Shown: positions 8,266-16,200 of the stretch, one piece after another
Position numbering within the stretch: the first letter of the stretch is position 1
Layout: every line of letters starts with the position of its first letter
From: a virus
Taxonomy: Duplodnaviria > Heunggongvirae > Uroviricota > Caudoviricetes
Length of the DNA: 36,774 bases
IMG/VR virus record: IMGVR_UViG_2778261162_000005
Direction: 5' to 3' (one strand)
Made by a program: the position numbers and the translations under genes
Notes under the pieces: model-generated
The model's input: only the letters and a program-made list of their open reading frames with translations
Databases searched by the model: none
Told to the model about the DNA's origin: nothing

Positions 8266-10035
8266 TTAGTTGCCGTTAACAATGCTGATAACGCTGCTGC
8301 GGGCCGGCGTGGTCAGCGTGGCCATGACTTCATCCAGTGCAGCTTCCGGTACGCCGTCCGGGTACTGTGCCGTTAACTGGCGGTAATGTTCCGGCGTCCA
8401 GGTAAGGCCGTTGGCGCTGAACTTCCCGCGCAGGGCTTTCGCGGCCTCCACATGAGTCATGGGACGCTGTTCAGTGCGCGGTCCGCGTACGTCAGAGGCC
8501 TGACCTCGCTTCGGCATATAGGCCGGAAGTGTGGCGTCATCAATATGTTTATACGGGTCAAGCCGCCCGCCGAACGGCAGCGCCTTCGCCTTGCGTGCGG
8601 CAGCTGCATCTGCGGCGTTGTCTGTACCGGTGACCAGCGCTTCGGTTTCTTTTGCCGCCGTCTGTGCCGGTGTTTCCGGCAGGGCTTTGTAACTTTCGCC
8701 AAATACCGCCGCGCCTTCAGCAAAGCCAAACTCGTTCTTTCTGACCTCTTCGACCAGGAAGAACGTCTCGTGGCCGTCCTCACCGGTCAGAACCACCTGT
8801 GCCACATCGCTGCGCCACGGGTTACGGGTAATCATCAGTTTTTCACCGACCAGTACGCCCGGTACCGTTGATACGTCAAATTCAGTGCCCCGGAACGAGA
8901 CACGAAGTTTTGGCGTGACTTTGCGGAGTTCTGGTGCCGCCACAGCCAGTTCACGGCATACCTCAACGGAAGGCGCTTTTTTCAGCTGCTCAGCAGTAAT
9001 CTTCAGCCAGATATCCGTGCGGGTTTTACCGTGGCGGCTGTGAACAGCCGTGGCGTTAAAGTGGCTGCGCCATTTCGCGGCCAGCGCGTTGAGTTCTTCC
9101 AGACTGTGAACCGGCCGGAACTTCAGACCCGGCTCCAGCTTGCGTTCGATAATGTCACGCGCCTTTTCCACCTGTCCGGTGGCGCGGGCGTTATGCGGCT
9201 TGTGCGCTATCAGGTCGATGCCCAGTGAGCGACACATGTTTTTCGTCATACCCGCGGTGTTTGCCGAGCCGGGGTCGAGATAGAGTATTTTCGGCACGCC
9301 GTGCAGCACGTCTGCGCCGCCACGCTCCTGCATGGCGTTGATAAGCACAGAACACAGGTTCTCACCGGATTCCGCCCCCGTCACATACTCAACGTAAATC
9401 CAGCCGCTGGCATGGTCGGTAATCTCGTAACTCCACACGCGGTCACTGGCGATACGGGCAAGGTTAGCGGGCTTGTTCTTGTAGAACTTCGCGCTGTCCA
9501 TCACCTGCAGCCCTTTATGTCCATTGCTCAGGTAGTAAAGCGTGCAGAGTGAGGCGTCAATCTGCCAGACATGATTGGGATGCAGACTGGCCACTTCGGT
9601 ATGTGGTGCAGGGGCATCCAGTTGTTCCGGGTGCAGGCCATAGTTACGCAGGGCACGGCTGATGGCATCTTCAGACAACGGGAAAAACTCACCGGTGGTT
9701 TCATCTGTTCTGCCTGCGGTGATAAAGCCGTTAGCCCGCAGGGTTTCCACTGCATCTGCGATGGAATAGAGACGCTTACCGTTCTTGCGGGTGGCCTCAC
9801 GCAGTGTGGCAGATATCAGCGCGGCTTCGTCGCGGGTCAGGGCGCTGCGCCCGGCATCGGCGCGTTTTTTGCGTTTATCAGTCACAGAGACCTCCTTCAG
9901 CCTGCGCAGCAGAGTGGCGCGGGACATGCCAAGTTCAGCACAGGCAGCGTCGTATACTGCACCGCGTTTACCATGCCCCGCGTCACGTGCCGCGCGGGCG
10001 ACATAAACCAGTCGTTCAGTCAGGGCAGCATTCAT
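8266..10035 (-). CDS. DDE transposase (Mu A-like, rve integrase core)
   Basis: 589 aa; N-terminal HTH region; catalytic-core candidates HVWQIDAS, YLDPGSANT and GQVEKA (D, D, E); GGAGG upstream of ATG 10035. Confidence 0.8.
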   Translation of the reverse strand: MNAALTERLVYVARAARDAGHGKRGAVYDAACAELGMSRATLLRRLKEVSVTDKRKKRADAGRSALTRDEAALISATLREATRKNGKRLYSIADAVETLRANGFITAGRTDETTGEFFPLSEDAISRALRNYGLHPEQLDAPAPHTEVASLHPNHVWQIDASLCTLYYLSNGHKGLQVMDSAKFYKNKPANLARIASDRVWSYEITDHASGWIYVEYVTGAESGENLCSVLINAMQERGGADVLHGVPKILYLDPGSANTAGMTKNMCRSLGIDLIAHKPHNARATGQVEKARDIIERKLEPGLKFRPVHSLEELNALAAKWRSHFNATAVHSRHGKTRTDIWLKITAEQLKKAPSVEVCRELAVAAPELRKVTPKLRVSFRGTEFDVSTVPGVLVGEKLMITRNPWRSDVAQVVLTGEDGHETFFLVEEVRKNEFGFAEGAAVFGESYKALPETPAQTAAKETEALVTGTDNAADAAAARKAKALPFGGRLDPYKHIDDATLPAYMPKRGQASDVRGPRTEQRPMTHVEAAKALRGKFSANGLTWTPEHYRQLTAQYPDGVPEAALDEVMATLTTPARSSVISIVNGN

Positions 10036-10960: not shown

Positions 10961-11269
10961 TTACAAACGACTACCTGAAATGACACGTTGGTTGATTTCG
11001 TTAATGCGATCCTGTGCACGTGCCATCTCGTTACTGTGGGCCATAGCGATCTGCAGTAACTGGATGCCCGGCGCGAAACGCCCGTTTTCCAGTTTCAGGG
11101 CCAACCCTTCTTCAATGAGGGTGTTGAGTGCCCGGTTGATGTTTGCCGGTGACTCGTGCAGTGCTGCCGCCAGTTCACCGTTGGAAATACCGTTCAGGGC
11201 ATGACCGCGCAGCGCTTTGAGTACCCGGAGGATGCGACTGCCGGAGCTTGAAACATTCGTCTTACTCAT
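10961..11269 (-). CDS. Winged-helix DNA-binding protein (IclR/MarR-like HTH)
   Basis: Start at ATG 11269 with AGAGG 8 nt upstream; ILRVLKALRGHALNGISNGELAAALHESPANINRALNTLIEEGLA resembles an IclR-type N-terminal HTH. Confidence 0.45.
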   Translation of the reverse strand: MSKTNVSSSGSRILRVLKALRGHALNGISNGELAAALHESPANINRALNTLIEEGLALKLENGRFAPGIQLLQIAMAHSNEMARAQDRINEINQRVISGSRL

Positions 11270-11321
11270 CTGCATACCTCTTTTGCGATATGTGATAACC
11301 TTTTACAAAGACTCAAAATCT

Positions 11322-11510
11322 TCAGGCTGCCTGAGCTGTTGATTTCAGCCCCAACTTCACGGCGATTTCATGGGATTTACCGTAACGGGCTTTGGTCTGC
11401 CCATTGAGAACGCGGTATACCTCATTGCGGTTGTAGCCGTTTTCTTCTGCCCAGCGGGTGAAAGTGATCCCGCGCTGGCGGAAGAGAGCTTTGACTTGTT
11501 CTGCAGTCAT
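11322..11510 (-). CDS. Ner/Cro-like small DNA-binding protein, first gene of the early operon
   Basis: 62 aa; AAGGAGA 6 nt upstream; divergent from the repressor gene, the position Ner occupies in Mu. Confidence 0.5.
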   Translation of the reverse strand: MTAEQVKALFRQRGITFTRWAEENGYNRNEVYRVLNGQTKARYGKSHEIAVKLGLKSTAQAA

Positions 11511-11610
11511 CGTTGTCTCCTTTGTTGATGCAATGATGTTTGCCTTATGTGTGATAGATTATGGTGCAGATTATCTCACCAGTCAACTTAAAGAGTGCAG
11601 AAAAACTCAC
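11511..11610. promoter_or_regulatory. Divergent early/repressor promoter-operator region
   Basis: 100-bp gap between divergent starts; contains direct repeats AGATTAT (x2) within TGATAGATTATGGTGCAGATTATCTCA. Confidence 0.45.
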
Positions 11611-11949
11611 ATGATCGGGTTACGTATTAAAGAAGAAAGAGAGCGTCTATCTCTTACACAGCAAGGGTTGGCTGATGCTATAGGTGTGGCAAAGAGAACT
11701 TTCATTGATTGGGAAAAAGATCGCACTTCTCCTACTGCAGTGCAGTTATCTGCACTATCAGAAATCGGTGTAGATATTTTGTATGTAGTTACTGGGGTGC
11801 GGAGTCAGCCTGTTGTTGCACCTTATGTGTCACAAGAAAAGAAAGAGTTAATGGATGCATTCGACGAAATGAGCCCCGAACAACGGAGGGCAATTCTTGA
11901 GGTCGGCAAAGTCTTCATTCAACCCAAACCAAGCAAACTCGCAGGCTGA
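11611..11949 (+). CDS. XRE-family HTH repressor (c-like)
   Basis: MIGLRIKEERERLSLTQQGLADAIGVAKRTFIDWEKDRTSP is a typical XRE HTH; divergent from the early operon. Confidence 0.6.
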   Translation: MIGLRIKEERERLSLTQQGLADAIGVAKRTFIDWEKDRTSPTAVQLSALSEIGVDILYVVTGVRSQPVVAPYVSQEKKELMDAFDEMSPEQRRAILEVGKVFIQPKPSKLAG

Positions 11950-12035
11950 TTTTGACCTGGACACAAAGGGCGCGTGGTTGATCTGGATGCTTTCAGAAAA
12001 CATCGCCAGTGACATAGTGGAAGTTGTTTGGTTTA

Positions 12036-12065
12036 CCGGAAAGCATTGTGCTTTCCGGTTTTGTT
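12036..12065 (+). terminator. Rho-independent terminator after the repressor gene
   Basis: CCGGAAAG-CATTGTG-CTTTCCGG followed by TTTTGTT, between convergent repressor and Dam genes. Confidence 0.55.
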
Positions 12066-12829
12066 CAGAAGTTGCAGATTACCAGTTCACGGCGTGGCGT
12101 GGGTTTCCCCGCCAGACTGTAGTTGATATTCACCGTCTGTATGTTCAGTTCAGTGAACACCCGACGCATCTGCGGAATGTCATTCACCGAGATAATCATC
12201 TTTCCTCTGATGCACCGTGCCAGTTCTGCGAGTAGTGTGTAGTTCTCTTCAGGAAAATCCACACCATAGCCTTCCGTCCCCAGATAGGGCGGATCACAGT
12301 AGAACAGCGTGTGCGGACGGTCATAACGCTTAATGCACTGGTGCCAGTCCATGTGTTCTATCACCGTTCTGGAAAGCCGCAGGTGTGCCGCTGACAGTTC
12401 TTCTTCAATCCGTAGCAGGTTGAAGCGTGGCGGGGAGGTGGTGGAGGTGCCGAAGCTGTGCTCTGCCACCTTGCCCCCAAACGCCTGCTTCTGGAGGTAG
12501 TAGAACCGTGCCGCACGCTGGATATCCGTCAGTGTTTCTTCCGGGGTGATCTGCAGCCATTTGTAGATCTGCCGGCTAACCAGCGCCCATTTGAATTGGC
12601 GGACAAATTCTTCCAGATGATGCTTTACTACCCGATACAGATTTACCAGTTCACCGTTGATATCGTTAATGACTTCGATCTTGCTGGGAGTCTTGAGAAA
12701 ATAAAGTGCTGCTGCGCCGCAGAATGGCTCCACATAGCAGGTATGGAGTGGGAACTGAGGCAGAATGTGTTTGGCCAGACGACGTTTTCCCCCAATCCAG
12801 GGGACGATGGGTAAAGATTGTTCTTTCAT
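12065..12829 (-). CDS. DNA N6-adenine methyltransferase, Dam-like (D12 class)
   Basis: Start at ATG 12829 (MKEQSLPIVPWIGGKRRL...); FCGAAAL AdoMet motif and DPPY catalytic motif. Confidence 0.8.
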   Translation of the reverse strand: MKEQSLPIVPWIGGKRRLAKHILPQFPLHTCYVEPFCGAAALYFLKTPSKIEVINDINGELVNLYRVVKHHLEEFVRQFKWALVSRQIYKWLQITPEETLTDIQRAARFYYLQKQAFGGKVAEHSFGTSTTSPPRFNLLRIEEELSAAHLRLSRTVIEHMDWHQCIKRYDRPHTLFYCDPPYLGTEGYGVDFPEENYTLLAELARCIRGKMIISVNDIPQMRRVFTELNIQTVNINYSLAGKPTPRRELVICNF

Positions 12830-12935
12830 TATCTGTAAGCCTTTTTCATTAGATGAAAATGCGATAGGCTTCCCTTGTTCTCGAGAACGGAAGAGCCTCG
12901 GTTGACTCACAGCTCATACCTGTAAGTTGATGACT
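12786..12935. repeat. Direct repeat copy 1 (Dam 5' end plus upstream region)
   Basis: Aligns by hand with 13419-13565; shared blocks CCAATCCA.GG.ACGATGGGTAA, TTTCAT.ATCTGTAA and CCTCGGT.G.CTCACAG..CAT.CCTGT. Confidence 0.6.
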
Positions 12936-12964
12936 CGCCTTGTGTTCGCTGCACAAGGTGAGTC
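12932..12964. promoter_or_regulatory. Imperfect palindrome upstream of P1 (hairpin or operator)
   Basis: GACTCGCCTTGTG-TTCGCTG-CACAAGGTGAGTC followed by GCTCTTTTC; GACTC/GAGTC motif occurs three times in 12903-12964. Confidence 0.4.
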
Positions 12965-13023
12965 GCTCTTTTCATGTTATTTGCATATTTCATGGGCGAC
13001 AATTAAAGGGAGTTACTAATACC

Positions 13024-13404
13024 ATGGCCCCAAAAAATATTGAGCGGTTTAATGAAATAGTTGGTGAGATATTTGGGAGACTCTACGAATCTTTCCCCGT
13101 CAAAATTGATATAAAGGCAGTTGATATCGTTAGACAGAATGAACTTACTTTTTTTCTTGATACCGTAGACTGGCTTAAAAACAGTGGCTATTTAATCGGG
13201 GCGCGTAGTTCTGGGGGGATCCACAACGCAGTGCTAACGGCTAAAGGTCTTGAGGTATTAAACGCTACGCCTGGAAGTCTGGAAAAACCGTTGGGGGCCA
13301 GAATATCTGACTCTATAAAAATTGAAGGGAAAGAAGCGTTGCGATCACTGGTTAGCCAGACTCTAGGAATAGGTCTGCAATATATGTCTCGTGGTCTTAT
13401 GTAA
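13024..13404 (+). CDS. Hypothetical protein P1 (126 aa), paralog of 13868-14272; unknown family
   Basis: ATG 13024 (MAPKNIERFNEIVGEIFGRL...); body visibly AT-rich; shares GxIFxRL, F(L/I)DTxxWL and VLTxKxLxxLNAxP motifs with P2. Confidence 0.6.
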   Translation: MAPKNIERFNEIVGEIFGRLYESFPVKIDIKAVDIVRQNELTFFLDTVDWLKNSGYLIGARSSGGIHNAVLTAKGLEVLNATPGSLEKPLGARISDSIKIEGKEALRSLVSQTLGIGLQYMSRGLM

Positions 13405-13464
13405 TATCGCAAGGCAGCGTTTGCCACCAATCCATGGAACGATGGGTAATGTCTGCGTTTTCAT
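13363..13464 (-). pseudogene. Truncated Dam 5' fragment (copy 2)
   Basis: Minus-strand ATG 13464: MKTQTLPIVPWIGGKR matches the Dam N-terminus, then the frame runs into the antisense of the P1 3' end and stops after 33 codons. Confidence 0.55.
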
Positions 13465-13565
13465 AATCTGTAAACATTTTACAATTATTAAAAATATGGC
13501 AGGCTAGTCTGGTCTCACGAGACTGACTGAACCTCGGTCGGCTCACAGTGCATTCCTGTGGGACG
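13419..13565. repeat. Direct repeat copy 2 (Dam 5' fragment plus upstream region)
   Basis: See copy 1; same orientation, immediately 3' of P1. Confidence 0.6.
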
Positions 13566-13609
13566 ATGGCCAGCCCGGCTTTCGGGTGCCGGGCTGGTCG
13601 TTCTTTCAT
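13562..13609 (-). pseudogene. Dam 5' fragment (copy 3) interrupted by a 28-bp palindrome
   Basis: Minus strand ATGAAAGAAC...CCATCGTCCC matches the Dam start, with CCAGCCCGG-CACCCGAAAG-CCGGGCTGG inserted between; on the plus strand the palindrome is followed by TCGTTCTTTC (terminator-like). Confidence 0.5.
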
Positions 13610-13653
13610 GATGCGGCAGGGATAGTGGGATTTCTGTTAATGCGGTTTAGGGA

Positions 13654-13869
13654 TTATCCGGGGTGATTTTCTGACCTTATCTGGTCCAGGGCGTAAGTGA
13701 GCCCTTCTGCAAAAACAGAAGTATCAAACTGCTTTTGTATTTCCTGAAAATGAACAGTGGCACGACAGATACTCAGTTCTCCGCGATGTAACCGGATAAT
13801 ATCTTCCAGAACATTGTTCACTGCTTCAGCACGGCGCTGATGTTCTGTTAACGTTAATCGGGGATTCAT
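13654..13869 (-). CDS. Hypothetical small protein (71 aa)
   Basis: ATG 13869 with AAGGAG 7 nt upstream; charged, helix-prone; its start overlaps the P2 start on the opposite strand. Confidence 0.35.
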   Translation of the reverse strand: MNPRLTLTEHQRRAEAVNNVLEDIIRLHRGELSICRATVHFQEIQKQFDTSVFAEGLTYALDQIRSENHPG

Positions 13870-14272
13870 GATGCACTCCTTAAATGATGATTTTTATGTA
13901 CTCACCGGCAAAATATTCTGCCGATTACTGAACACGCATCCGGTACCTCAGGTTTTGATTTATTCTGGTTTTTTCGATATCCCGGACCAGGTTGATCACG
14001 ACCAGAAAAAGTGCCGGTATTTTATTGATACGCTGATATGGCTTCGGGATAACAGCTATATTCGTTACTCTCAGTTGCTGGCTGTGGGAGCGGCTGATGT
14101 CGTCCTCACGGAAAAAACGCTCTGTCTGCTCAATGCCATGCCGACCTTTCTGCAGCCCCGGCCCGTGCCATTTAAAGAGTCGCTTCTGGATGCAGTAAAA
14201 ACCGGTGAAAATGCAGTCATCGCTGAATGCGTATCCCGGATTATGCGTTACGTGTTTAATGAACGTAAGTGA
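13868..14272 (+). CDS. Hypothetical protein P2 (134 aa), paralog of 13024-13404; unknown family
   Basis: N-termini of P1 and P2 align without gaps from the first Met (F9, G14, I16, F17), supporting this start. Confidence 0.55.
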   Translation: MMHSLNDDFYVLTGKIFCRLLNTHPVPQVLIYSGFFDIPDQVDHDQKKCRYFIDTLIWLRDNSYIRYSQLLAVGAADVVLTEKTLCLLNAMPTFLQPRPVPFKESLLDAVKTGENAVIAECVSRIMRYVFNERK

Positions 14273-14991
14273 GGTTTATCCGTTGTCTGCATAATCCCGA
14301 TAGCCAGTGCGAGGGGAAGCAATTCCGGGGAAACTTTTTCAAACAGCGATTCCCATTCTCCTCTCGCCATCACTCTGTCCAGCCCGCCCTCCAGCTGCAT
14401 TTCAGCAATCTTCCTGATTTCCCGGAACAACGCCGCTTTGATCTCTTCATGCTCAGCTTTATTTTCCGGTGTCAGAATGTATTCGTCGAAGAACCGGGGA
14501 GGCTGGTTAACGGGGATTGTGTTCACCGGGATGTGTTCCTGCTTCCCGTACTTCGGGGCCGAAAAACATTCTGTTGGCTGACCAGCGAGTTTACGTAACT
14601 CCTTCATGAGCAGCTCCTGATCGTAAACTGTCATCAGTGCCGCAATGGTGGCATGCAGTGCATCGGGCAGTATCCAGGGTTGCCGGCCCGTGGGGCATAT
14701 AACATCCAGCAGCTCATTCGTCCGACAGATACGCTCCTCGCCGTATGACAACAGGCCCTGTCCCGTGTATTCCTCCAGCCTGATCACTGTGCCAGCCCGT
14801 GGCTTCTGCCAGGTCGTCAGATCATCGCCACTCATACGGCGCTCATTCTCCACGTCAGCAGCATCGACAATGACGCTGTTTCCGAGTTCCTGTTTCACCA
14901 TCTCTTCTATCCGCGCCAGTACGTAACTTTTACCGCTGCCCACAGGACCGGACACAGTGACAGTGATGACCGGATTCAGTGTGTGCGTCAT
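14248..14991 (-). CDS. P-loop NTPase / kinase-like protein of unknown type
   Basis: 247 aa; Walker A GPVGSGKS at residues 15-22, Walker B-like VIVDAAD; C-terminal about 170 aa without recognisable motif. Confidence 0.6.
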   Translation of the reverse strand: MTHTLNPVITVTVSGPVGSGKSYVLARIEEMVKQELGNSVIVDAADVENERRMSGDDLTTWQKPRAGTVIRLEEYTGQGLLSYGEERICRTNELLDVICPTGRQPWILPDALHATIAALMTVYDQELLMKELRKLAGQPTECFSAPKYGKQEHIPVNTIPVNQPPRFFDEYILTPENKAEHEEIKAALFREIRKIAEMQLEGGLDRVMARGEWESLFEKVSPELLPLALAIGIMQTTDKPHLRSLNT

Positions 14992-15121
14992 ATCGTATTC
15001 TCCTCTGTGAATAATTCATCGTTTATCCTGCACACCCCGTATCCCCGGCTCTCTTAACGCGCTTTAAAATCCTTCGCGCCCTGTATTTGTGATGCTGTCT
15101 CCACCAGACAAGGAGACACAC

Positions 15122-15472
15122 ATGAAAAGCCTGAAAAAATTCATTCCCCCTGTTAAAAAACCTCGCCTCAGCGGCTGGCTGCTGACCTCAGTGCTGTTGC
15201 TGGGCACCATCGCTCTGGTCTCGCCACAGCAGTTGCCTGTTGTGATCTACAAGCTGGCACTCATCACGCTGGCAGCAGTGCTGGGTTACTGGCTTGACCG
15301 TTCGCTCTTCCCCAAAGCCCGTCCCGGTCAGTACCTGAAACATGACGACAGGCTGATGGCTGAAGGGCGTTTCCCTGTGCAGACCGGCCTTCACCTTGTG
15401 TTTGCTGCTGCGTTAATCCGCCGTGCACTGATTGTTGCAGCGATCTGTCTGGCTGTGGCAACAGGACTGTGA
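15122..15472 (+). CDS. Putative holin (3 predicted TM segments)
   Basis: 116 aa, GGAGA RBS; three hydrophobic helices; first gene of the lysis cassette. Confidence 0.5.
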   Translation: MKSLKKFIPPVKKPRLSGWLLTSVLLLGTIALVSPQQLPVVIYKLALITLAAVLGYWLDRSLFPKARPGQYLKHDDRLMAEGRFPVQTGLHLVFAAALIRRALIVAAICLAVATGL

Positions 15473-15474
15473 CC

Positions 15475-16200
15475 ATGAACTGGCCTCAAATCACCCTCAT
15501 TATTCTGTTCGCCTTTGGTCTGGGCGTAACCGCCATCAGACACGGAGAACCACGTAACGATAAATACAGCTTCTGGTGGCAACTTACTGGCAACCTGGTG
15601 ATTGTCTGGCTGCTCTGGTGTGGCGGCTTCTTCAGTCAGGCCCGCGCAGCGCAGCCTCCGCAGGCTGCGCTGCAGTATCGCGATGATGTGATCCGTAATG
15701 CCCGGCTTGAATGGGGACTGTCTGCGCCGGTGGCTGATTTCGCTGCGCAACTGCATCAGGAAAGCGGCTGGCGACCTGATGCGATCTCGCCGGCTGGCGC
15801 TCAGGGACTGGCGCAGTTTATGCCTGCCACTGCCGACTGGATAAGCCAGTTGATGCCGGCGCTGAGCAGTCGAGAGCCGTTTAATCCGGCATGGGCTATC
15901 CGGGCGCTGGTCAGTTATGACCGCTGGCTGTGGCAGCGCGTCAGCGCCGCCAACGACTGCGAGCGTATGGCCATGACACTGTCGGGCTATAACGGTGGTC
16001 TGGGCTGGGTACAGCGGGACAGGCAACTTGCATCACAGAAAGGGCTGGACCGTACCCGCTGGTTCGGACATGTCGCCACGGTGAATGCCGGACGCAATGC
16101 TGCCAGCTGGCGGGAGAACCGTCATTATCCCCAGCGCATCCTGTTCACGCTGGCCCCGCGTTATCTCTCATGGGGAGGGGCAAGCTGTGTGGGTACGTAA
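15475..16200 (+). CDS. Lytic transglycosylase endolysin (SLT domain) with two N-terminal TM segments
   Basis: ESGWRPDAISPAGAQGLAQFMP is the SLT catalytic signature; about 55 aa of two hydrophobic helices precede it. Confidence 0.7.
   Translation: MNWPQITLIILFAFGLGVTAIRHGEPRNDKYSFWWQLTGNLVIVWLLWCGGFFSQARAAQPPQAALQYRDDVIRNARLEWGLSAPVADFAAQLHQESGWRPDAISPAGAQGLAQFMPATADWISQLMPALSSREPFNPAWAIRALVSYDRWLWQRVSAANDCERMAMTLSGYNGGLGWVQRDRQLASQKGLDRTRWFGHVATVNAGRNAASWRENRHYPQRILFTLAPRYLSWGGASCVGT

Follow-up and report, generated by a model that had tools for sequence, protein, structure and literature searches.

Diverged direct repeats around the accessory gene P1 of a BcepMu-type prophage, and a candidate regulatory RNA upstream of dam

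The DNA stretch analysed here (36,774 nucleotides, IMG/VR record IMGVR_UViG_2778261162_000005; hereafter the window, whose numbering is used throughout) belongs to a BcepMu-type Mu-like transposable prophage in which P1, a gene coding for a 126-amino-acid accessory protein, is bracketed by two direct repeats, each containing a 5′ end of the DNA methyltransferase gene dam. These repeats are probably diverged alleles of one conserved boundary module, composed of about the first 18 codons of dam, a spacer and an RNA-like element of ~108 nt, which would have been juxtaposed when recombination between related phages brought in P1. The P1 arrangement is an ordinary, well-explained phage mosaic joint, and its bracketing repeats give no indication of a new cassette mechanism; they provide a cleanly resolved case of a temperate phage gaining an accessory gene and illustrate that a recombination scar can duplicate a regulatory module. 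The part most worth attention is the conserved, terminator-ended element upstream of dam, a candidate regulatory RNA with good covariation support.

The repeats, the dam gene and P1

The self-alignment of the region recovered the direct repeats with dam 5′ ends on both sides of P1 that had been proposed by a sequence-only reading, an earlier inspection of the letters and open reading frames. They are longer than the ~145 bp given there: positions 12774-12976 (copy A) and 13409-13610 (copy B) align over 205 columns with 68.8% identity and a local score of 67, against 9.0 ± 1.2 in dinucleotide shuffles (z ~47). The non-coding part alone aligns over 148 columns with 66.9% identity (z ~27), and the similarity is therefore not confined to dam codons, a restriction that the same reading had envisaged; the conserved block that it placed upstream of both start copies is present in both. 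Copy A, regarded as the incoming allele, comprises dam codons 1-18, a spacer of ~36 bp and one version of the RNA-like element (element A), and copy B, regarded as the resident allele, comprises a dam stump, the spacer and another version (element B).

In the allele identity matrix, computed over a 212-nt unit, A and B share 66% identity, and the longest run identical between them is 11 nt. Copy B matches the single-copy alleles of G749, PhiKM, HN68 and ATCC 43896 at 88-92% identity, and copy A is 97% identical to the copy A of a Salmonella prophage (L075) and at most 77% identical to the alleles of other lineages (Brenneria, 77%; KP12/Mixta, 74-75%; Photorhabdus, 73-74%). Elements of the A type, at more than 80% identity, were found in only six Escherichia coli genomes, all carrying P1, three of them at least 99% and three 90-95% identical to the A region. 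Since B is nearer to the single-copy alleles and A to other lineages, the two copies would be alleles of diverged phages that were brought together. They are not each other's closest relatives, as a recent tandem duplication would have left them, and the comparisons indicate that the repeats are the scar of a recombination between two diverged phages, with no recent tandem duplication. An identity of 11 nt is too short for efficient RecA recombination, and A and B are too divergent to recombine with each other, so the arrangement should be stable, in agreement with the one architecture shared by all carriers.

The intact dam gene (12065-12829, – strand, start MKEQSLPIVPWIGGKR) encodes a D12-class N6-adenine DNA methyltransferase of 254 amino acids, with a full-length match to PF02086 (E 1.1e-27, profile positions 1-248 of 253) and a match to phrog_56 (E 2e-97), and begins at the ATG proposed earlier, at 12829. 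The gene is itself a mosaic, whose 3′ two-thirds resemble the alleles of E. coli prophages and whose 5′ ~130 nt resemble KP12-type alleles. In a sliding comparison with G749, HN68 and KP12 in 50-nt bins, the identity to E. coli alleles was 88-100% per bin at 12300-12700 and 72-82% at ~12700-12850, where the KP12-type alleles reached 80-92%, which suggests a homologous crossover within dam near 12700.

The second dam start, at ATG 13464, reads MKTQTLPIVPWIGGKR and opens a stump of ~18 codons (13409-13464, – strand), near-identical to the dam 5′ end of the single-copy phages G749 and HN68, which then continues into the antisense of the P1 3′ end, in agreement with the sequence-only reading. That reading had also placed a recombination breakpoint just past P1, at ~13415, and alignments to the G749 dam and to P1 homologues locate it at ~13405-13409, 1-5 nt past the P1 stop codon. 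This illegitimate junction (13402-13412) places the P1 stop TAA (13402-13404) next to codon ~18 of the resident dam, with no homology at this right end except for a possible ATGT microhomology, and the same junction was found in Salmonella L075. An independent dam loss was observed in E. coli ATCC 43896 (L007, 2480-2700), which kept a longer dam 5′ stump and an intact element; a breakpoint shared with this strain, suggested by a BLAST boundary that matched the start of copy B, was discarded on account of the longer stump.

P1 (13024-13404, + strand) belongs to phrog_2266 and has a predicted N-terminal winged-helix domain followed by C-terminal helices. A winged-helix fold was recovered for the protein, the Foldseek search against the PDB gave weak winged-helix matches only, PADLOC, NCBIfam and Pfam (E ≤ 10) returned nothing usable for P1 and its neighbours, and a literature search on DUF2513 was uninformative. 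P1 may be regarded as a moron-like accessory gene for a small winged-helix protein. No σ70-like promoter was found upstream of it, at 12966-13023, and the first terminator-like hairpin 3′ of P1 on the same strand is the third hairpin of element B, as judged by folding, covariation and its T-rich tail; the consensus terminator scan reported only the equivalent hairpin of element A.

The description of P1 as a divergent AT-rich cargo gene was upheld by its guanine-cytosine content (42.3%, against 52.0% in dam and 54.5% in the window) and by its distribution. P1 DNA was present in 6 of 5426 complete E. coli genomes, from strains of six countries and several hosts, with identical P1 sequences and one locus architecture. 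A related locus was found in 635 of these genomes, covering at least 80% of the query in 455 of them, and in most of the matches listed the matched span fell ~635-650 bp below the query length. The relatives inspected, G749 and PhiKM, have no P1 and carry a single copy of the unit, essentially the window copy B, with phrog_4490 placed 191 bp past dam. P1 homologues of Serratia and Brenneria prophages occupy other positions of the same region and are conserved in the coding sequence only, and the paralogue of P1 further downstream in the window (13868-14272) shares 28% identity with it. In Limnobaculum parvum (CP029185.2, L085, 4001-5058), a P1-like gene with 60% identity lies directly upstream of a DUF2441 gene, outside any recognisable prophage and near type VI secretion genes; since DUF2441 is an alternative cargo of the same slot in KP12-type phages, the P1-like and DUF2441 genes may be functionally linked.

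A three-hairpin element between dam and the late promoter

The element spans ~108 nt on the strand opposite dam, and consists of three hairpins with an intrinsic terminator at its end. Element A (12866-12973, ends approximate, + strand) contains hairpin 1 at 12867-12897, hairpin 2 at 12900-12931 and the terminator hairpin 3 at 12931-12965, followed by CTCTTTTCAT, and element B (13501-13607, ends approximate, + strand) contains them at ~13506-13528, 13536-13567 and 13568-13599, followed by GTTCTTTCAT. The covariance model matched the window twice, both times on the + strand, with 120.8 bits for A and 146.7 bits for B, against 12.5 bits on the reverse strand, both copies being part of the training set, and the RNA fold of each copy gave z ~–3.7 relative to shuffles.

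A pattern search with the conserved block retrieved 43 IMG/VR loci and 19 loci in other Enterobacterales, distributed among Pantoea, Photorhabdus, Mixta, Buttiauxella, Trabulsiella, Intestinirhabdus, Erwinia, Limnobaculum, Pseudocitrobacter and Apirhabdus, which together with the loci fetched earlier yielded 46 distinct versions of the element. All 46 preserved hairpin 1, a hairpin 2 with the nearly invariant CTCACAG-N7-CTGTG(G/A)G, and a GC-rich hairpin 3 with a T-rich tail. Nearly every relative has a single copy of the unit, located between dam and the late (holin) promoter.

The pairing pattern indicates that the structure is under selection, as supported by compensatory changes. Among 33 distinct sequences, 97.4% of the pair cells held standard pairs, compared with 29-52% in controls with slid partners, and 14 pairs showed changes on both sides; none of 500 shuffles reached the observed values. 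The + strand is favoured, since 167 cells are G-U pairs and the reverse strand is paired at only 83.1% overall, the difference being evident for helix 2 (99% against 75%) and helix 3 (96.5% against 80%). Hairpin 3 shifts in sequence between lineages through U-G intermediates, as from CCTGG/CCGGG to CCTGG/CCAGG, the distal helix covaries by lineage type (GAAC:GUUC or GAGC:GCUC), and the variation of hairpin 1 is confined to its loop and bulge. Rfam 15 gave no relevant match at E ≤ 5 over 11000-16000, and no description of the element was found in the literature on BcepMu-like phages and on small RNAs of Mu-like prophages. It looks like an undescribed candidate regulatory RNA upstream of dam, without an Rfam family.

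The element most likely acts as an RNA transcribed from the + strand, as its strand-specific pairing suggests. A hairpin resembling an intrinsic terminator (12035-12059, + strand), which separates the repressor gene from the dam 3′ end, should halt the repressor transcript before dam, and an RNA covering the element on the + strand would therefore need its own start. All four lineage types share the motif [G/A]AAAAT, separated by exactly 5 nt from the downstream AGGCU with which hairpin 1 begins (GAAAAT at 12855-12860 for element A, AAAAAT at 13490-13495 for element B), with no –35 hexamer. Both of the dam truncations observed spare the first 56 nt of the gene or more, and such retention would fit a promoter of the element located there. 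The favoured role is that of a short, terminator-ended transcript divergent from dam, which would be antisense to any dam leader starting further right, and whose terminator, a hairpin 3 with a T-rich tail in all lineages and reported by the terminator scan for copy A, would also shield the lysis genes from rightward transcription. A role solely in terminating the repressor (immunity) transcript was rejected, given the good terminator already present at 12035-12059.

The sequence-only reading had counted three copies of the dam start, the third being split by a perfect palindrome. The palindrome, CCAGCCCGG-N10-CCGGGCTGG at 13570-13597, is present as described and corresponds to hairpin 3 of element B. 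The resemblance of its flanks to dam is also not trivial, since GGGACGATGG and GTTCTTTCAT occur exactly twice each in the window (~0.07 expected for each), confined to the dam start and to the flanks of hairpin 3. What did not hold is the status of the stretch as a start: it is made up of the 3′ arm of hairpin 2 and the tail of the terminator, both parts of an element found once per phage in relatives, where CAA, CAC or CAG replaces its CAT, and in this stretch the KP12-type and Photorhabdus elements resemble their cognate dam less closely. At the equivalent place, copy A has a different hairpin (12931-12965, followed by CTCTTTTCAT), which had been overlooked. The third start may be an old exapted dam stump or, in part, a coincidence between an MK... 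start region and a U-tail. The 70-codon open reading frame that begins at the third ATG (13397-13609, – strand) spans the element and the dam stump and is almost certainly not a gene.

A more specific proposal holds that the element defines an undescribed family of phage small RNAs, divergent from dam in the BcepMu-like prophages of Enterobacterales, whose 3′ half (CCTGTGGGACGATGG ... hairpin ... GTTCTTTCAT) would be an exapted older dam 5′ stump, antisense to the dam translation-initiation region. This proposal is doubtful; if it held, the RNA would control dam or else the transition to the late genes, and the P1 lineage would represent the same stump-forming process caught a second time. The tail of the element shows 9-11 nt of complementarity to the dam start in the window and in the KP12/Mixta types, and a weak one in the G749 type and in Photorhabdus, and the CAT of the tail would fall beyond the likely 3′ end; a trans pairing of the tail with the dam start would thus have a low probability.

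Short terminator-ended phage transcripts located next to late genes are known, such as the 6S RNA of phage lambda. Similarly, StxS is a short terminator-ended transcript of Stx phages near the late genes (PMC13502914). The element shares with them its short, structured and terminator-ended form, its location near the lysis/late operon of a temperate phage, and its conservation across relatives. It differs in that its terminator lies upstream and not downstream of the late-promoter motif, no antiterminator is known for it, it has no Rfam match, and its RNA is only predicted. ST35 of Salmonella Typhi Ty2 is probably a Mu-like prophage. Transcription of a low-GC cargo region within it was reported from strand-specific RNA-seq (PMC2704369), and if ST35 is of the BcepMu type and carries the element, the transcript may already be present in those data.

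Origin of the arrangement and alternative explanations

The arrangement probably arose in an ancestor in which a segment of a diverged relative, carrying the 5′ part of dam, allele A and P1, was joined to a resident E. coli-type phage. The left join would be a homologous crossover inside dam, to which the identity profile points, and the right join, visible in the sequence, an illegitimate one, from a few bases past the P1 stop onto about codon 18 of the resident dam. A homologous left join combined with an illegitimate right one would therefore leave behind the resident dam stump and allele B, with P1 bracketed by repeats. The same product would result from a single non-allelic crossover between two co-resident genomes. 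It may also have come from a two-step route in which P1 and dam were initially convergent and the dam body was then deleted; a P1-like gene convergent with a full dam is carried by a Brenneria prophage, and loss of that dam body would yield the right half of the structure. Subsequently, the module of ~900 bp would have spread through homologous recombination. In Salmonella L075 the module is ~97% identical over 12750-13400, the dam body is ~82% identical and a deletion begins from 13667, and the presence of the same module and junction within different flanks implies exchange by homologous recombination.

Morons and mosaic joints, in which accessory genes are inserted between conserved genes by non-homologous or homology-anchored recombination, are well established in lambdoid and P2-like phages. 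Like them, P1 is restricted to a small sub-lineage and absent from the close relatives inspected (G749 and PhiKM), has a lower guanine-cytosine content than its surroundings, lies between conserved modules and precedes a terminator-like hairpin on the same strand, with a sharp junction right past its stop codon. In contrast to them, the P1 joint duplicated a functional boundary module of ~205 bp, left a dam stump and bracketed the gene by diverged direct repeats, and no P1 promoter was found. Homology-facilitated illegitimate recombination, in which one end is anchored by homology and the other is illegitimate, has been documented in E. coli (PMC3240628). The window likewise has its left end in a shared gene, dam, and a right end devoid of homology except for the possible 4-nt ATGT, but its mechanism is read from the product, and the partners would be two phage genomes instead of a linear fragment and a chromosome. 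The two-step route and a single event of homology-facilitated illegitimate recombination are equally possible.

Some observations weigh against this reading of the module and its element. A search through P1 homologues and contigs revealed no donor in which dam, allele A, P1 and the late promoter follow in this order: it returned Serratia (neither dam nor element), Brenneria (a P1-like gene on the other side of dam), Limnobaculum (a P1-like gene next to DUF2441, in a non-phage context) and E. coli and Salmonella with the same scar. With the donor phage not found, the one-step model remains a proposal. The putative left crossover was placed from 50-nt identity bins. As to the element, no convincing σ70 promoter was found ahead of it beyond the [G/A]AAAAT motif, its covariation derives mostly from a few deep lineages, with an effective sequence number of 1.77, and the sequence of hairpin 2 hardly varies, as might also be expected of a DNA site or a protein-binding site.

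The sequence-only reading had favoured other origins for the repeats, namely cassette exchange or tandem duplication followed by replacement of the cargo. In the latter, the unit formed by the dam 5′ end and its upstream region, perhaps with a phrog_2266 gene, would have been duplicated in place, diverged, and had its cargo replaced. The direct, collinear and adjacent copies agree with such a history, as does the assignment of both P1 and the gene at 13868-14272 to phrog_2266, but these two proteins are only 28% identical and P1 has no accompanying copy of phrog_4490. Moreover, the 66% identity between A and B, against 88-92% between B and the single copies of other E. coli phages, the proximity of A to the Brenneria (77%, its nearest), KP12 and Photorhabdus types, and the lack of any E. 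coli A-type element above 80% identity outside the six P1 carriers make a duplication in place highly improbable. It is hardly credible that a dedicated integron-like or site-specific system exchanges cassettes by recombination at the repeats. The region is indeed a cargo hotspot, P1 lies between conserved sequences, and motif copies likewise enclose a second cargo block, described below; however, the neighbouring genes include no integrase or site-specific recombinase, the nearest recombinase being the DDE transposase (8266-10035), and phages free of cargo still carry one unit, as expected for one functional module present once in nearly all relatives. The junctions also vary by lineage, with a dam stump of ~56 nt in the window, a longer one in ATCC 43896 and a join at hairpin 1 in Pantoea. 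Alternative cargo between the same repeats, and variation between them across populations, had been anticipated, yet P1 is the only content ever seen between two copies, in the same architecture in all six E. coli carriers and in Salmonella, and the repeats share no identical run above 11 nt.

Another explanation concerns the element itself, whose hairpins could be DNA palindromes bound by phage regulators, such as operators of dam or of the late promoter, instead of RNA structures, the repeat being kept for those sites. Hairpin 1 does contain perfect 12-bp palindromes (GTCTCGCGAGAC and GTTCTCGAGAAC), hairpin 2 forms an inverted repeat that hardly varies (CTCACAG-N7-CTGTGAG), the block lies between dam and the late promoter, and no clear RNA promoter was found. 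Operators would nevertheless leave unexplained the many G-T pairs of helices 2 and 3, which are mismatched on the other strand and underlie the pairing differences reported above, the complete change of the hairpin 3 sequence between lineages with retention of its pairing and T-tail, the variation of hairpin 1 in loop and bulge, and the covariation of the distal helix between GAAC:GUUC and GAGC:GCUC. This makes binding sites in DNA an unlikely basis for the block, and the juxtaposition of two diverged boundary modules, each ending in an RNA-like element, remains the preferred reading.

The cargo hotspot and the surrounding genes

The view of the neighbourhood as a cargo region was substantiated by the relatives. 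P1 adjoins, just upstream, a slot between the element and the holin gene that holds variable cargo. This slot is empty in 35 related loci, in which the holin lies at 170-180 nt, and in the other loci it holds about ten classes of content, of which some are variants of each other, including a DUF2441 gene with a 107-amino-acid gene, a pair of 84 and 83 amino acids, phrog_4490/phrog_3787 with or without a phrog_2266 gene, a truncated phrog_3787, and versions disrupted by insertion sequences. Such insertions interrupt the slot, on the right of the element, in the plant pathogens Pantoea stewartii (L008) and Erwinia tracheiphila (L026), and the L008 element abuts unrelated sequence directly at hairpin 1. 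HN68, ATCC 43896, Serratia and Brenneria carry additional cargo on the left side of dam, past the repressor gene. The stretch from repressor to holin is thereby mapped as a cargo hotspot with differing contents on both sides of dam, in prophages present in ~12% of complete E. coli genomes and also in Salmonella.

In the window, the slot is occupied by a second cargo module (13654-14991), which most E. coli relatives share, while others lack it, have different content in its place or retain only part of it. It comprises phrog_4490 (13654-13869, – strand), the phrog_2266 paralogue (13868-14272, + strand) and phrog_3787 (14248-14991, – strand), in an unusually tight block. The first two genes are back to back with overlapping starts (CATGATG, 13866-13872), leaving no intergenic space for a promoter, and the 3′ end of the paralogue overlaps the convergent 3′ end of phrog_3787 by 25 nt (14248-14272).

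A motif of the late-promoter region, CTATTAACGCnGTTTAAAATCC, follows the element at ~45 nt in all relatives and precedes holin, and a search for it gave 3 matches against 0.36 expected. The window holds an intact copy upstream of holin (CTCTTAACGCGCTTTAAAATCC, 15051-15072, + strand), as do HN68, Serratia and Brenneria at the same place, and a degenerate one (CTGTTAATGCGGTTTAGGGATT, 13634-13655, + strand), a relic of the late (lysis) promoter region upstream of the second cargo insertion, with its TAAAAT part lost. Copies of a conserved linker thus bracket the second cargo block as well, and this block with its duplicated motif repeats the theme of P1, that of cargo between duplicated linkers.

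The prophage shows the gene order of BcepMu-like phages, from transposase, IclR-like and Cro-like regulators and repressor to dam, holin and SLT lysin, but PhiKM and most E. coli relatives have neither P1 nor a second copy of the boundary module. The DDE transposase (8266-10035, – strand) is assigned to phrog_310, and a DUF3102 protein and the IclR-like and Cro-like regulators are also encoded on the – strand. A helix-turn-helix repressor (~11600-11949) is on the + strand, as are holin (15122-15472) and the SLT lysin that follows. The closest deposited phage is Escherichia phage PhiKM (PQ738613), classed in Bcepmuvirus, with 93% identity over 11900-15100, a region in which E. coli M-17 is 100% identical. 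Three matching places were reported in the M-17 chromosome (NZ_CP068394.1), which may hold a second related prophage or fragment besides the prophage of the window.

The holin leader (15092-15124) contains the hairpin GTCTCC-ACCAGACAA-GGAGAC, which includes the Shine-Dalgarno sequence. A pairing of its loop (ACCAGAC) with hairpin 1 of the element was considered and set aside, as it is not conserved across lineages when compared by eye. In HN68, Serratia and Brenneria, the stem of the leader hairpin is conserved and its loop is variable, which suggests that holin may be under translational control.

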